DNA of 64,000 nt, from the sequence record OP856590.1. One strand, written 5' to 3'. Shown piece after piece: positions 45,528 to 52,572 of the stretch (position 1 is its first letter; every line of letters begins with the position of its first letter). A program made the translations under genes and the position numbers. Source of the DNA: Escherichia phage Ec_MI-02. The notes under the pieces were generated by a model. The model was given only the letters and a program-made list of their open reading frames with translations, searched no databases and was not told where the DNA came from.

Positions 45528-45770
45528 TTATTCCTTAATTCCTAGTACTTGTTTAAAAGTCTCGTCGTAATCAAGACTTTGGCCCGTTTGTTCTTTATGT
45601 TTGTATATAATATCACTTACTTCTGATAGCATATTTTTATATGAACGAGTTAAAGCAGATTTAAGCACGCTGTATCTATCAGGAAATTTACCATGTTCAT
45701 TATAATACGCTATTGCTAATTCACGGACTGCCTTTTCAGCAGTCTCCATATATTCTTTACGCTTTGTCAT
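45528..45770 (-). CDS. hypothetical protein (80 aa)
   Basis: ATG start. Confidence 0.5.
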
Positions 45771-46074
45771 TTTCTTCTCGGTTAAATCGGTGTTTGCAAT
45801 GACGGCATTTATAACGAAGAATACTAGTCTGCCAATGAATTAATTGAACCTGTTCAGTACCGCATTCAGGGCAATTAGGAACGTTTTTAGAAGCCCTTTC
45901 GCGACGTTCAACCATAGCCATAATAGCATCCCATGCTGGAGGTTTAAAATCTAAATCGTCACAACCATGAATCTTTCCACGCATTTCCAGATCGTCTTCT
46001 TCACCAGCCATAATAATTTTAATTAGACTGGAATTACTTGAAGCTGCAATATCTTCTAATAAGCGCTTTTTCAT
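45757..46074 (-). CDS. zinc-ribbon hypothetical protein (105 aa)
   Basis: CPECG...CRHCKH. Confidence 0.5.
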
Positions 46075-47000
46075 TTCAATACCTCAATAGCATTACGTAA
46101 ACCATTTGCTTTTGCATTAAGAGCTTTTAACAATTTGGTGTGTTCGGCAATCTGGGCTTCAACTTCAATTAAACGAGCATTGAGATATTCACGTTCTTCG
46201 CTCAGGTTATCAACCTTTTCTACTTTAGGTTCTTTTACAACTGGCTTATACGTATTAGGGTTCTTCAGTTTAATTAGAATGCGTGAGCTGTATAACATTG
46301 AACCATTATCTTCGGTTTCATCATACATTTCCACTACGTCCATAATTTTTAACATCATGCGAAGTTTATAAGACAACGAACGAATAGTTTTGTTGTGCTT
46401 ATTAATTTCTTTAGCTGTCATGGTGCCGAGATTACGTGAGTAATAATAAGGAACCTGGATATTAATTAATACTGATGAACCACCTGGCTTGTGTGTTACT
46501 TCATCAGCAATAACCCAATCCTTAACATGAACTGTATTTGTACGGTCATCGCCTGCGGTAAATAGTTTGCGAGCATGCTTAAAAAGCATATTCACTTGGG
46601 TATTGAATTGACAAGCAAATTTATCAGCAAATTTAGTTTCAGGAATGGTAGATAACCAATCAGCTAAATGGGTCTTTTTAACATCGTTAACAATAGTAAA
46701 TTCAACCAAATCGGTTATAGATGTCGCAGATTTAATGAAGCTCGGCTTCATAAAGTTTTTAATGTTATCGTGAGCTACAGTAGAAGATAACATACGAGAA
46801 CGTTTAAACCATTCAAGCAAATTGCCTAACGAATGAGAATAAGCGTTTTGAGTATCTTTACAGATATGATTTTCCTGGCCAACATATTGAAGGAAATCAC
46901 GAAGAATATTATTGATTACTGCTCTGTGTCCGATCTGATAATTACGGTGTTTAGTAATAAGACTGTCAAAATAATCAATATAATGTTTACGAGTTTTCAT
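46071..47000 (-). CDS. coiled-coil paralogue family member 1 (309 aa)
   Basis: ATG; C-terminal coiled coil; member of four-gene tandem family. Confidence 0.6.
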   Translation of the reverse strand: MKTRKHYIDYFDSLITKHRNYQIGHRAVINNILRDFLQYVGQENHICKDTQNAYSHSLGNLLEWFKRSRMLSSTVAHDNIKNFMKPSFIKSATSITDLVEFTIVNDVKKTHLADWLSTIPETKFADKFACQFNTQVNMLFKHARKLFTAGDDRTNTVHVKDWVIADEVTHKPGGSSVLINIQVPYYYSRNLGTMTAKEINKHNKTIRSLSYKLRMMLKIMDVVEMYDETEDNGSMLYSSRILIKLKNPNTYKPVVKEPKVEKVDNLSEEREYLNARLIEVEAQIAEHTKLLKALNAKANGLRNAIEVLK

Positions 47001-47052
47001 GTTCTTCTCACTTGGTTAATGATTTATACTCCGAGCCATCCTTGGCTTTAAA

Positions 47053-48054
47053 TTACTTAATTAATTGTAAAGCTTGTTCAAGACGATCCAGGCGATTAAC
47101 AGATTCTTCCCAAATCTTTTTAGCCTGCTCATATTCTTTCTGCGCTTTATTAGAAATTTCTAGAACTTCCTTATAAGCTTTTTCTAATGCAATAACTTCT
47201 GAACGAATTTCTACTGGTTCAGGTGAATCATCAAGATTATCCATTAGTTCCTCAAGGGTAGTTTCTTCTTTAGGAGTATTCACAATTTCATCACATTTTT
47301 GTTGGTAAATTTCTTTATCAGTCGGTGAGTACGCACACTTTACTTCACGGAGACTAACTACAATTTTATATCCTTCCCAACCGCATATATTCTTAAAAGG
47401 ATAAGTATGAATATTTTCTACTGTTTCCATACAAAGTAATGCAGTCTCTAATTGACGAGTTATATCGCTAGCAATTGAGAAAAATTTATTGATGTTCTTT
47501 TGATTAGCTTCTGGTGTAAAAAATTCATAATTCACAAAAATAGCTGCTTTATTTTTATCAAGTTCATATTCTTTTATGATAATCATATCAGAAGCCCAAG
47601 GATGAATTTGACGATAATCGCCATAGCATAATTTAGAAGCTGATTTTAGAATTTGCTTTTTGAAAAGTCTGAAATTACTAATCCAACGACGAGTAAAAAT
47701 ATTATCAGGATCTTCTTTAATATTACGATGATATGAATTAACATCACCGAACCAATTATATCCTACTACATCTTTAGTTCGTTTAATTTCTTTCCCAAAT
47801 TTACCGAGAATATCTTGATTAACTAAATATGAAAGAAGACGAGACCTTTTAAAGGTTTCCTTAATATCATCTTTATATTCGCGACTAGAAATTTTATGAA
47901 CTTCATGAATAAATTTGCTTGAAGAAACAATACTTGCATCAGTATTATTGAGCCACTGATTGATAATAGAAAGAACACTATTCTGACTAGACATAGGTTT
48001 AACTTTATCATCAATAACGCTATTGAATGATTTGATATATTCGTTACGAGTCAT
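47053..48054 (-). CDS. coiled-coil paralogue family member 2 (333 aa)
   Basis: track start TTG lies in promoter; ATG MTRNEYIKSF with GAGGAG SD; motif FRLFKKQILKSASKL. Confidence 0.6.
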   Translation of the reverse strand: MTRNEYIKSFNSVIDDKVKPMSSQNSVLSIINQWLNNTDASIVSSSKFIHEVHKISSREYKDDIKETFKRSRLLSYLVNQDILGKFGKEIKRTKDVVGYNWFGDVNSYHRNIKEDPDNIFTRRWISNFRLFKKQILKSASKLCYGDYRQIHPWASDMIIIKEYELDKNKAAIFVNYEFFTPEANQKNINKFFSIASDITRQLETALLCMETVENIHTYPFKNICGWEGYKIVVSLREVKCAYSPTDKEIYQQKCDEIVNTPKEETTLEELMDNLDDSPEPVEIRSEVIALEKAYKEVLEISNKAQKEYEQAKKIWEESVNRLDRLEQALQLIK

Positions 48055-48082
48055 ATTAATCTCCTCAGTAGAAAGTAAGAAC

Positions 48083-48112
48083 ATTATACCACATCCTTGT
48101 GGCAAAGTAAAC
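48083..48112 (-). promoter_or_regulatory. T4 early-type promoter
   Basis: GTTTACTTTGCCACAAGGATGTGGTATAAT; 29/30 identical to 2429..2458. Confidence 0.6.
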
Positions 48113-49134
48113 TAGTTCAGTGCATTTAGTGCATTGTTCAGTTTAGAACGTTGCTTTGTCAGATTTTGAACCCTTGACTGAGCTTGTTCTAACACCTTTT
48201 CAGCTTCTAGCACTTCATTGGTCGCTTTAACGAGTTCATCATCTACTGCCTTAAGAGACTTCTTAATCGCGTCAGCGTGCCATTTTTCTACAGGTTTAAA
48301 ATTTGAATTTTCAGTAGGAAGAAAACTCACTTTATTAAGTTTACATGCATCTATATTGCTTGAGCTATACATCCAAAATTTAGGATCGTTTGATGAGTAA
48401 TTGGATAAATTTAAGTTATCTTGCACTTCCTGCTTTTTCTCTTGCGGGATTTCGTCCTTTCTCAAAAAATCGTATTTAAATGAAACGATCATATCAAGTT
48501 CATATGTTGTTGTGTCTAATTTAAATCGCTCAAAACGAGGTAAAATCTTAGACTGAACAGCGGCAACAACATCCATATACTTAAATGCTTCTGTCAACTG
48601 CGATTTAAGGCATTCGCAAATTGAAAGAGAATTTTTTGTATTAGGTTTAAAGCTAATTCGCGCAGTTCTGTTATTTTCTTTTAATGGTCTTACTTCCATC
48701 TGAAGAGTATAACCATCAAATTTCAGGTTCTTTAAGTTAATGTCAGAACCTTTTAATCGACTAGCAGTCGACAAAATTTGCTTTAATTGTCTACGGAACA
48801 GAGCAATAAATCTCCATTCAATACGATAATGATTTGGATTGAAAAATCCAGATGATAAATCGACCTTACTTTGACCAACGCCTTGAACAAATAGAGGATT
48901 TTTATAATCAATAGTTTTACAGAAATCTGTGAGCTGCTCACGAGCAGTCATTTGTGTAATATACCCCGCTTTACTAAAATTACTCACCCATTCACTGCTA
49001 TTTAGATATTTAAAGTGATGAATAGCACGATTAACTTTATCAGGGTCTAAATTATTTTCACACAAAAATGTCATAACATTACGAGTATCGCTGGCAGTAC
49101 GAACCATATCTTCAATTTGAGAACGAGTTTTCAT
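48112..49134 (-). CDS. coiled-coil paralogue family member 3 (340 aa)
   Basis: ATG; motif FRRQLKQILSTASRLKG; C-terminal coiled coil. Confidence 0.6.
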   Translation of the reverse strand: MKTRSQIEDMVRTASDTRNVMTFLCENNLDPDKVNRAIHHFKYLNSSEWVSNFSKAGYITQMTAREQLTDFCKTIDYKNPLFVQGVGQSKVDLSSGFFNPNHYRIEWRFIALFRRQLKQILSTASRLKGSDINLKNLKFDGYTLQMEVRPLKENNRTARISFKPNTKNSLSICECLKSQLTEAFKYMDVVAAVQSKILPRFERFKLDTTTYELDMIVSFKYDFLRKDEIPQEKKQEVQDNLNLSNYSSNDPKFWMYSSSNIDACKLNKVSFLPTENSNFKPVEKWHADAIKKSLKAVDDELVKATNEVLEAEKVLEQAQSRVQNLTKQRSKLNNALNALN

Positions 49135-49142
49135 GGTGTTCC

Positions 49143-50033
49143 TTAAGATTTAAGTAAATCAATAATTTTAATTAACTTTTCACGCTCAGATTTAGCTTTA
49201 CTACTCAATCCAGATAGTCTGAAAATTTCATCATCATATTGTTGAATGGAAATATTCAGCTCTTCAATCTGTTTATTAAAATAATCAATTTGTTCAGAAT
49301 GTTTTTCGTTACTACGAACTGGTACAGGTTTTGTAGGCAATTTAGTTGAACTGGATTCATCCGGGCGATAAATTAAAATACAACTTGAACCAATAGGGCA
49401 TTTTGCACCAGATGAATATTCTAATGTTCCAGCTTCTTTTAAAACTTCAAAAGCTAAACAGAGATGATGACCCATATTGACATAATCTGTAGAGTGAGCT
49501 CTGATGTAATAATCAATGCCACGAGTACTAAATTTAAAGCATTTAAGGTCTTCTGTATTATTGGTCTTAAAAATCATTTGTTTATCTAGACCTTTAGCTA
49601 ATCGAGCGCCTAATGCTAATAATCGTCGTTGATTTTCCCACAAATCCGCAATCATTTGATCGAATGATAATTTTGGCATTAGTCGACCATAAAGGTCATA
49701 TCCTTTATTATAATTACGAAGGATTTCACTCGCGTTAATACGAGACAATGCTCCAATTTTATTAAGGGCTTTCATAATGCGATTAGATAAACTCATTCCA
49801 GACCCATTTGTTCGCTGCAAATGTTTTTCTAATCCAAATCCAATATCAACTTTAAACTTATCTAAAATTTCTGCATGAACATCTCTGTCAATAACATTCA
49901 AATCCAAAGTTGGGTTAAATCTATGAAAAAATTTATCCGGCTCTCCACGGCGAAATACAGTCCATTCATTCATCATTTTTTTATTAACTAAAGATTTAAT
50001 TACTGCATTGACATTATTAATTACTACTGACAT
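49143..50033 (-). CDS. coiled-coil paralogue family member 4 (296 aa)
   Basis: track start TTG; ATG MSVVINNV with GAGGAAAA SD; motif ENQRRLLALGARLAKG. Confidence 0.6.
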   Translation of the reverse strand: MSVVINNVNAVIKSLVNKKMMNEWTVFRRGEPDKFFHRFNPTLDLNVIDRDVHAEILDKFKVDIGFGLEKHLQRTNGSGMSLSNRIMKALNKIGALSRINASEILRNYNKGYDLYGRLMPKLSFDQMIADLWENQRRLLALGARLAKGLDKQMIFKTNNTEDLKCFKFSTRGIDYYIRAHSTDYVNMGHHLCLAFEVLKEAGTLEYSSGAKCPIGSSCILIYRPDESSSTKLPTKPVPVRSNEKHSEQIDYFNKQIEELNISIQQYDDEIFRLSGLSSKAKSEREKLIKIIDLLKS

Positions 50034-51489: not shown

Positions 51490-52458
51490 TTATTTCAAAA
51501 GAGTAACCTCAGCAATTTCTTCCCAACCGTTTTTGTCGGTCATAATAAAGTCAGCAAGATAAAGAGCAGTACGCAGTGAAACATTGCGTAAACGATTAAC
51601 ATTAACTTTCATCCATGATAATGCTTTATAAGTTTCTTCATCAGAAAGACCGCGCTTTTGCATCATGTCAGTTGAAAGAATAACATCTTCAACCCTGACC
51701 ATAATTTCTTCATTAGTGTGAACACCCAAATCTAAATAAACCGAGCGGGACACTAATGCTTGTAAATGTGGAGCAAGTTTAGTACCACGGTCTAATTCGC
51801 GGTCAATGTCAACGTTTGTGATAAAAACAATCGTTCCTTTAAATTCAAACTCACGCTCAATGCCTTTTTCTTCTAAGTAAGAAGACGCAGTGCTCCAGCA
51901 GACTTTACGGGTCTCTCCAGTGTCCAGAGCGGCTTTTAGAAGATTAAGAATGTCCATATCAGAGAAAACATCTACATCATCAATCAAAAGGACAGAATTC
52001 TCTTCACGATTATTCCAAAGCTGCTCATAAAGACCAATACCAGAGATTTTACCATTAATGCTTTTATATTCAATGTATCCAATATCATTTGCTTTATTTA
52101 AAGCTTTATCTAAAGAATACGTTTTACCAATACCTGCTGCGCCAGAGATAATTAATGAACGAATATTTCCGTTAATAATACCATTCGTCATCATTCCCAT
52201 AACATTAAATCTTTTATTAATGCGGGTTTTCATATCTTCATATGATTCTTTAACTTCTTCAACTTTTACACCATCATATGAAATATCTGATTTGTAAACC
52301 CAAACACCGCGACGTTTACCGTCAATTTCAACAAAAACTTTACCATCTCCTTGTGCATCTACCGGAGCATTATCTGGGAACCATTCGCCTAAGAGCTCAA
52401 AAGTTCCAGAGATTTCTTTACCGAAGTAGATACCCTTATTGATAGTTACAGTTTTCAT
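51490..52458 (-). CDS. P-loop AAA-type ATPase (322 aa)
   Basis: Walker A GAAGIGKT, Walker B VLLIDDVD; track start TTG trimmed to ATG. Confidence 0.7.
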   Translation of the reverse strand: MKTVTINKGIYFGKEISGTFELLGEWFPDNAPVDAQGDGKVFVEIDGKRRGVWVYKSDISYDGVKVEEVKESYEDMKTRINKRFNVMGMMTNGIINGNIRSLIISGAAGIGKTYSLDKALNKANDIGYIEYKSINGKISGIGLYEQLWNNREENSVLLIDDVDVFSDMDILNLLKAALDTGETRKVCWSTASSYLEEKGIEREFEFKGTIVFITNVDIDRELDRGTKLAPHLQALVSRSVYLDLGVHTNEEIMVRVEDVILSTDMMQKRGLSDEETYKALSWMKVNVNRLRNVSLRTALYLADFIMTDKNGWEEIAEVTLLK

Positions 52459-52491
52459 TTTATTCTCCAAATCCGTATCAGTTGATAGTTG

Positions 52492-52522: not shown

Positions 52523-52552
52523 CGTTTTGTGAAAAAATTTTGAAATAAAAAA

Positions 52553-52570
52553 GGGAGCCCGAAGGCTCCC
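52553..52570 (-). terminator. rho-independent terminator after NTase-like gene
   Basis: GGGAGCC-UUCG-GGCUCCC followed by UUUUUUAUUU. Confidence 0.7.
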
Positions 52571-52572
52571 TA

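Follow-up and report, generated by a model that had tools for sequence, protein, structure and literature searches.

Do the four consecutive genes at positions 46071-50033 of a 64,000-nucleotide stretch of Escherichia phage Ec_MI-02 (sequence record OP856590.1; hereafter, the window) share one ancestor, and what might such kinship say about their function? A first-pass annotation, made from the letters of the window and its open reading frames (ORFs), had described them as tandem paralogues with a common internal motif and a coiled-coil end, and had placed them among possible host-interaction or anti-defence factors. Its coordinates and sizes for four consecutive minus-strand ORFs were right, and we refer to these as nrdC.3, nrdC.4, nrdC.5 and nrdC.6, names assigned by synteny and by annotation in phages Shfl2 and T4. 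Collectively, our analyses place nrdC.3-nrdC.6 as four members of one old phage-specific family, in which nrdC.3, nrdC.4 and nrdC.6 are related to nrdC.5 at the superfamily level only. The whole window was classed as Tequatrovirus, and the region matched 739 T4-like phage records, with 97.8% identity to Shigella phage pSs-1; three of the four array proteins had identical counterparts under the name Ec_MI-02.

Three separate families are currently kept for the array, both in Pfam (PF26897, PF23882 and PF26899) and in PHROGs (1435, 2351 and 2257). Specifically, nrdC.3 (46071..47000, minus strand, as are all window features given below; 309 amino acids [aa]; the most allele-variable member) and nrdC.4 (47053..48054; 333 aa; ATG start and GAGGAG ribosome-binding site) were each covered end to end by phrog_1435 (E = 1e-116 and 8e-163, respectively), which places both in one family, and PF26897 was present, as a precomputed match, on all nrdC.4 homologues. 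The orthologue of the T4 Dsr1 antagonist, nrdC.5 (48112..49134; 340 aa), matched the Pfam model DUF7235 (PF23882) over residues 1-340, with E = 2e-119 and a score of 398.8 bits, where the gathering threshold is 30. This model had no match in nrdC.3, nrdC.4 or nrdC.6 at E<=0.1 and, among the 23 members of our alignment A1, was matched by only the 4 nrdC.5-type sequences. The most distant member, nrdC.6 (49143..50033; 296 aa), was matched by phrog_2257 over residues 1-296 (E = 2e-151), and its homologues carried PF26899. Identity to the T4 counterparts was 61% for NrdC.3, 90% for NrdC.4, 93% for NrdC.5 and 98% for NrdC.6.

BLASTP alone joined only nrdC.3 and nrdC.4 (E = 2.5e-6, 23% identity over 270 aa); the alignment of nrdC.4 with nrdC.5 was collinear and insignificant, and nrdC.6 had no match to other array members. 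Profiles were built from homologues in a large protein collection and from annotated phages belonging to other genera (JK45, RB69, DK-13 and MN04). With the C-terminal helix kept, hhalign connected nrdC.3 to nrdC.4 (probability 98%, E = 2.7e-14) and the combined nrdC.3 and nrdC.4 profile to nrdC.5 over nearly the full length (probability 96%, E = 8.9e-9). As a coiled-coil control, this helix was removed from every alignment before hhalign was run, and the relationships persisted, with E = 7.9e-15 for nrdC.3 against nrdC.4, 4.6e-8 for nrdC.4 against nrdC.5, and 4.7e-7 for nrdC.3 plus nrdC.4 against nrdC.5. Reversed-sequence controls, which preserve composition and helicity, gave E-values of 0.2-0.8. 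Hence, similarity of the kind proposed in the first-pass annotation extends beyond the coiled coil among these three proteins (7.9e-15 to 4.7e-7), and their paralogy is strongly supported by the helix-free profile alignments. Hidden relatives were also sought: nrdC.2, nrdC.7, nrdC.8 (which too ends in a helix), nrdC.9, nrdC.10 and gp084 of phage Marfa all returned E-values of 0.1-0.8 and were rejected as members.

The connection of nrdC.6 required a broader profile. Small family profiles gave marginal results against nrdC.6 (E = 5e-4 to 0.19). When 1.84 billion representatives were searched exhaustively with a hidden Markov model (HMM) of the nrdC.3/4/5 alignment, 17 clusters only were recovered, among them four divergent full-length members (P0226, P0228, P0234 and P0238), of which P0234 matched the nrdC.3/4 profile and the nrdC.5 profile, each at 97% probability. 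The nrdC.6 link was resolved only once the divergent members from this search had been added to the profile: the resulting superfamily profile of 22 sequences (nrdC.3/4/5 plus the divergent members) matched the nrdC.6 family with a probability of 92%, E = 6.1e-7 and a score of 54.8, against E = 0.44 when the alignment was reversed and a top score of 22.6 (best E = 0.03) over 30 block-shuffles. The matching zone was the non-coiled-coil core, from an upstream helix through two motif helices. All four genes are thus connected by significant profile-profile alignments outside the coiled coil, as the claim of paralogy would have it, and for nrdC.6 that kinship is supported by the profile match together with the structure models described below.

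The motif was located at residues 128-154 of nrdC.3 (FACQFNTQVNMLFKHARKLF; 46539-46619), 124-150 of nrdC.4 (WISNFRLFKKQILKSASKLCYG; 47605-47685), 109-134 of nrdC.5 (FIALFRRQLKQILSTASRLKG; 48733..48810) and 127-153 of nrdC.6 (MIADLWENQRRLLALGARLAKG; 49575-49655). The four strings picked out in the first-pass annotation occupied the same columns in the profile-profile alignments of all four proteins, and they are in true register, because the matched core spans the upstream helix through the motif helices. That upstream conserved helix, with the pattern FK-SR-LLS...A...L..F, lies approximately 40-65 residues N-terminal of the motif and was placed by the hhalign alignments at residues 52-71 of nrdC.5 (48922..48981), with equivalents in nrdC.3 (46752-46811), nrdC.4 (47797-47856) and nrdC.6 (49710-49772). 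At the other end of the proteins, heptad analysis delimited a C-terminal helix at residues 286-340 of nrdC.5 (48115..48279) and at equivalent positions of nrdC.3 (46074-46217), nrdC.4 (47056-47202) and nrdC.6 (49146-49307). The heptad-rich helix that had been claimed is therefore present in each protein, with a length of 48-55 residues instead of the 35-45 aa first estimated. It retains a single unbroken heptad register, in which a/d positions are 71-94% hydrophobic, versus 15-26% elsewhere, and a terminal signature, [KR]xxLxx[AI]hxxLK, ends all lineages. A helix of this amphipathic character and length probably drives oligomerisation.

Structure models were consistent with this arrangement. 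The AlphaFold2 model of nrdC.4 (predicted local distance difference test score [pLDDT] 83.7) contained a single long C-terminal helix, H285-332, and in that of nrdC.6 (pLDDT 77.5) the corresponding part consisted of H243-272 plus H277-295, with one break at a Gly. Both models had the same order of elements, beginning with a bundle of N-terminal helices, a small beta element and the two motif helices; then come two beta-hairpins with a long helix between them, a linker predicted at low confidence and the long C-terminal helix. In Foldseek searches of BFVD, the nrdC.4 model matched an nrdC.3-type protein (E = 7e-9), and in a one-way search it matched the nrdC.6 model of phage JS10 with E = 2.3e-5 and probability 1.0, at a template modelling (TM) score of merely 0.37-0.42, a low value that is expected because the domains are joined by a flexible linker. 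Further matches were uncharacterised proteins from T4-like phages whose hosts are Acinetobacter, Erwinia, Serratia, Pectobacterium, Klebsiella and Enterobacter. The models predict an architecture that comprises, from N- to C-terminus, a variable helical domain, two motif helices on a small alpha/beta domain, a disordered linker and the amphipathic helix.

That no catalytic motif is visible, another point made at first reading, was borne out: only T2, R3 and three Phe residues are invariant across the nrdC.3/4/5 alignment, and scans of the four proteins against Pfam and NCBIfam returned no enzymatic family. In profile searches of PDB sequences the only matches, where there were any, were to helical repeats of designed proteins and to coiled coils of nucleoporins (E>=0.02), and no sequence relative emerged. 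Several individual matches were set aside as noise, namely one of nrdC.3 to the XerD N-terminal SAM-like domain (E = 1e-3), which was well below the cut-off, and scattered, sub-threshold matches to DUF3905 and CENP-F (Pfam at E<=10 or NCBIfam). Many homologues of nrdC.3-nrdC.10 in GenBank and UniRef bear the names 'thioredoxin' or 'Thioredoxin, phage-associated'. Pfam and NCBIfam gave no match to thioredoxin or glutaredoxin families for nrdC.3-6, and there was no thioredoxin match for nrdC.7, nrdC.8 or nrdC.10; the label has apparently spread from the locus names nrdC.x.

The function of one member is established by experiment. Srikant et al. (2022, eLife, PMC9391042) found that a T4 clone lacking accessory DNA was unable to plate on ECOR17, that deletion of dsr1 from the host restored its plating, and that cloned dsr1 shielded MG1655 from it. 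T4 nrdC.5, which these authors termed an early gene, allowed the T4 deletion mutant to plate again on ECOR17-Dsr1 cells when supplied in trans from a plasmid, so that Dsr1, a SIR2 NADase defence, is neutralised by T4 NrdC.5 (PMC9391042). Moreover, according to a 2026 preprint (PMC12803255), Dsr1 has a tetratricopeptide repeat (TPR) sensor that is a homologue of the Avs7 sensor and responds to the major capsid protein of the phage, while the tail terminator and further virion folds are recognised by other Avs families. From the 93% identity to T4 NrdC.5 we infer that the NrdC.5 of the window would neutralise Dsr1 in the same way. Our literature searches (nrdC.3/.4/.6, DUF7235 and anti-Dsr1) found Srikant et al. 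as the sole functional evidence and no paper on the function of nrdC.3, nrdC.4 or nrdC.6, or on their paralogy with nrdC.5; NrdC.5 was also absent from the list in the main text of the EVADES preprint. Thus, the suggestion of anti-defence factors holds experimentally for T4 nrdC.5, and extends by inference to nrdC.3, nrdC.4 and nrdC.6, which are good counter-defence candidates because they are paralogues of a Dsr1 antagonist. The anti-defence role of one gene was already published; what is new is that this Dsr1 antagonist belongs to a paralogous array of three to four members.

The array resolved into three lineages (6, 5 and 3/4). One member of each, in the same order, was present in Mosigvirus RB69, Gaprivervirus DK-13 and Dhakavirus MN04, such that the order is fixed across four genera (Tequatro-, Mosig-, Dhaka- and Gaprivervirus). 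T4-type Tequatroviruses have four copies, with both nrdC.3 and nrdC.4, and in Klebsiella phage Marfa the corresponding site holds one member only, immediately upstream of that phage's nrdC.2 homologue; copy number therefore ranges from 1 to 4. The family is narrow, being confined to T4-like phages (the 17 clusters found among 1.84 billion representatives). Because three lineages have been kept in order across genera, the array is old and stable and not the product of recent expansion, and the idea of a recent, diversified tandem duplication does not stand. The nrdC.3/nrdC.4 pair alone looks like an extra copy gained at the level of Tequatrovirus.

Within Tequatrovirus, three allele classes of nrdC.3 were recognised, at approximately 98, 77 and 60% identity, in genomes that are otherwise approximately 95% identical. 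Identities of nrdC.4 and nrdC.5 were 86-96%, versus 96-100% for the flanking nrdC.8-10 (98-100% in all but one comparison). Pairwise ratios of nonsynonymous to synonymous substitution rates (dN/dS) were 0.13-0.26 for nrdC.4 and nrdC.5, 0.04-0.17 for nrdC.6, and 0-0.09 for nrdC.8-10, save one comparison (0.14, nrdC.9 in RB32). The array genes evolve faster than their flanks, yet under purifying selection overall. Variability within the genus peaked at residues 20-60 in all three families, with a further peak at residues 180-280 in nrdC.5, and the motif core (residues 60-180) was almost invariant, with an entropy of about 0 in nrdC.5.

Exchange and decay were both apparent. Shigella phage JK45, a Tequatrovirus, has an nrdC.6/5/3 cassette (L003, 4925-7948) that is 95-98% identical to that of Mosigvirus RB69 (L004) and only 25-29% (nrdC.5/nrdC.6) or 78% (nrdC.3) identical to the window; it lacks nrdC.4 and has no nrdC.7 between its nrdC.8 and nrdC.6. 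This cassette is, to judge from these identities, an intergeneric exchange. Among recombinant forms, P0120 joins residues 146-272 of nrdC.5 to residues 129-309 of nrdC.3, P0121 is an nrdC.6 of 378 aa with an internal duplication of approximately 80 residues, and P0235 (173 aa) carries the nrdC.5 C-terminal helix behind an unrelated N-terminus. ACG-C40 and Pinarejo have kept no more than the final 72 or 47 codons of nrdC.3 or nrdC.6. To judge from these recombinant and remnant forms, the C-terminal helix is a separable module. In phage T2 (L007, PV648363; 3602-4492 and 5640-6579), nrdC.6 is split into 201 + 65 aa and nrdC.4 into 155 + 170 aa, with nrdC.5 and nrdC.3 intact. RB69 nrdC.5 (300 aa) has lost its C-terminal helix by frameshift; the 96%-identical JK45 protein has 319 aa. 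Additionally, nrdC.6 of the T4 reference (L002, NC_000866, 10067-10894; window 49143-49260) is a frameshifted protein of 275 aa with an out-of-frame tail, …IEELIFLFNNMMMKFSDYLD, in which the C-terminal helix is lost, and tblastn coverage of the gene in that genome took two pieces. Since the protein of phage T4T is intact (296 aa), the T4 reference form represents a strain mutation or a sequencing error. Long-propagated laboratory phages seem to lose array members, and the damaged T2, T4-reference and RB69 copies support the view that these genes are accessory, dispensable and retained in a host-dependent way. As for the arms race that had been envisaged, it has partial support: the nrdC.3 allele classes, the lower identity of nrdC.4 and nrdC.5 than of their flanks, cassette exchange, chimeras and pseudogenes speak in its favour, whereas dN/dS values of 0.04-0.26 and old, stable lineages do not.

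Local DNA elements offered one indication of early expression. A strong promoter of T4-early type lies ahead of nrdC.4 (48083..48111; GTTTAC, a 17-nt spacer and TG-TATAAT), with 10 of 12 consensus matches and an extended -10. The promoter scan as a whole was no richer than shuffles (30 found versus 32.6 expected), and this site alone is noteworthy. Short minus-strand hairpins occupy the gaps upstream of nrdC.3 (47031-47045) and nrdC.4 (48087-48104), the second of which overlaps the spacer of the early promoter. Both have the core CAAGGATG, within CCAAGGATGGCTCGG and TGCCACAAGGATGTGGTA, respectively, and they could be left over from the nrdC.3/nrdC.4 duplication or could serve in regulation.

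The array is flanked by nrdC.2, a zinc-ribbon protein, on one side and nrdC.7, a membrane protein, on the other, and in its wider setting lies between nrdC (glutaredoxin) and nrdC.11 (nucleotidyltransferase). Two uncharacterised neighbours belong to the same accessory block: nrdC.2 (45757-46074; 105 aa) has a double CxxC zinc ribbon, and nrdC.10 (51490-52470; 326 aa) has the P-loop GAAGIGKT and sub-threshold matches to AAA_14, AAA_22 and STAND NTPase models. Upstream of nrdC.10, a strong terminator-like hairpin of the intrinsic type (52552-52571; AGGGAGCC-TTCG-GGCTCCCT, then TTTTTATTT) corresponds in position to a rho-independent terminator that the annotation of phage wV7 places between nrdC.11 and nrdC.10. 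A seg-like homing endonuclease gene is inserted between nrdC.10 and nrdC.9 in RB32 (L008, 1439-2158) and RB5 (L009, 1442-2161), an insertion absent from the window and from T4.

The best explanation for these observations, which we favour with moderate confidence, is that the array encodes an old, non-enzymatic family of early binders that neutralise host immune sensors. The four proteins would be made early, ahead of the late virion proteins that trigger the sensors, and would act without catalysis as stoichiometric, probably oligomeric, binders of them. NrdC.5 would bind Dsr1, whose TPR sensor is reportedly triggered by the major capsid protein, and the three paralogue lineages would have sub-functionalised toward different host targets or sensor variants, with residues 20-60 of the N-terminal helical domain as the main variable surface. 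Several points weigh against such an explanation. Functional data exist for one of the four proteins only, and gene-wide dN/dS of 0.04-0.26 means that there is no gene-wide positive selection. The identity of nrdC.6 (95-98%) is nearly that of the flanking genes, its tie to the family consists of one 70-column profile match and one Foldseek match (TM 0.37-0.42), and the nrdC.3/4/5 HMM failed to retrieve nrdC.6 proteins from the 1.84 billion representatives.

A more specific version of the immune-sensor explanation, which we regard as unlikely, is that the central alpha/beta domain is tail-terminator-like and that the proteins are early decoys, occupying the TPR sensors of Dsr1 or Avs-type defences without activating them, as DSAD1 does on DSR2. 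In an extension that we consider equally unlikely, NrdC.3-6 would constitute a dedicated T-even sensor-blocker scaffold, a coiled-coil oligomer whose central domain imitates a tail-terminator-like virion fold. Its lineages would then each jam a different fold-recognising receptor (Dsr1 and Avs-type TPR sensors), with the N-terminal helices setting specificity. The reported trigger of Dsr1 is, however, the capsid protein and not the tail terminator, and the PDB-sequence and Pfam searches provided no sequence-level link to terminators.

Alternatively, the paralogues might assemble through their C-terminal coiled coils into one hetero-oligomeric early complex and act jointly. The co-occurrence of one member per lineage (6, 5 and 3/4) in fixed order in four genera would accord with such a complex, as would the terminal signature common to all and the last ~30 residues of nrdC.4, which are ~85% conserved in P0226, a protein only 28% identical overall; conservation of this kind is what a specific helix-helix partner would lead one to expect. 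Yet plasmid-borne nrdC.5 suffices to rescue the T4 deletion mutant on Dsr1 cells, nrdC.6 of the T4 reference lacks the helix, T2 retains an intact nrdC.5 though nrdC.4 and nrdC.6 are split, and Marfa has a single copy, and we judge joint action to be unlikely.

A role outside immunity, in host takeover or housekeeping (e.g., modulation of nucleotide or redox metabolism), appears rather improbable. The position of the array in the nrd cluster between nrdC and nrdC.11, the 'thioredoxin' label, the strong conservation of nrdC.6 and of the nrdC.5 core, and the lack of a recorded phenotype for three of the four proteins would fit it, but the label is apparently annotation spill-over with no thioredoxin or enzymatic family behind it, laboratory phages carry decayed copies of these genes, an anti-defence phenotype has been demonstrated for one member, and the family is restricted to T4-like phages (17 clusters in 1.84 billion). 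Finally, that the four proteins are unrelated and resemble each other through low-complexity coiled coil and chance motifs is highly improbable and, for nrdC.3/4/5, already contradicted: the three separate Pfam and PHROG families, the blank BLASTP result for nrdC.6 and the marginal small profiles are outweighed by coiled-coil-free E-values of 8e-15 to 5e-7 (versus 0.2-0.8 reversed), by the nrdC.6 core match (6e-7 versus 0.03 for the best shuffle), and by the Foldseek cross-match of nrdC.4 and nrdC.6 with its congruent order of secondary structure.

Several consequences follow from the paralogy. Few antagonists of SIR2/NADase defence are known besides NrdC.5, and its three adjacent paralogues are counter-defence candidates that are cheap to test in the best-studied phage. 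Residues ~60-180 and the C-terminal helix would form the scaffold and specificity would probably reside in residues 20-60 and, in nrdC.5, 180-280, a division that is useful for mapping the Dsr1 interface. Our results further suggest that the three Pfam/PHROG families should be united in a single clan, and that the widespread 'thioredoxin' label calls for correction. Efforts to engineer the host range of therapeutic T4-like phages should take into account that allele sets and copy numbers vary and that laboratory strains have silently lost members. A decoy-type mechanism, which we consider unlikely, would be suggested if the terminator-like fold is real.

The closest known system is T4 NrdC.5 (DUF7235, PF23882) itself, of which the 340-aa gene of the window is the orthologue, at the same position and with 93% identity. 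The nrdC.3, nrdC.4 and nrdC.6 of the window have its architecture and conserved core helices and differ from it in belonging to other Pfam and PHROG families. DSAD1 of phage SPbeta, which is reported to bind the sensor region of DSR2, offers an analogy, in that NrdC.5 would likewise keep a SIR2 NADase silent despite the presence of the triggering structural protein; the two differ in host, phage family and defence protein (the DSR2 alpha-solenoid versus the Dsr1 TPR sensor). Unlike tail terminator and tail completion proteins of the lambda gpU-like fold, with which they have no sequence similarity, the nrdC proteins have additional parts, helical at the N-terminus and coiled-coil at the C-terminus, and are produced early, whereas the terminators are late structural proteins. 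Among T4 counter-defence genes, each of which neutralises one host defence and can be deleted at no cost on K-12 (PMC9391042), tifA, adfA/61.2, dmd, ipI-III and arn likewise encode accessory proteins of small to medium size, early or injected, that T4 can dispense with on laboratory hosts. Those, however, either stand alone or neighbour unrelated genes in an island, whereas the nrdC array comprises what is probably one fold in three to four long-lived lineages.

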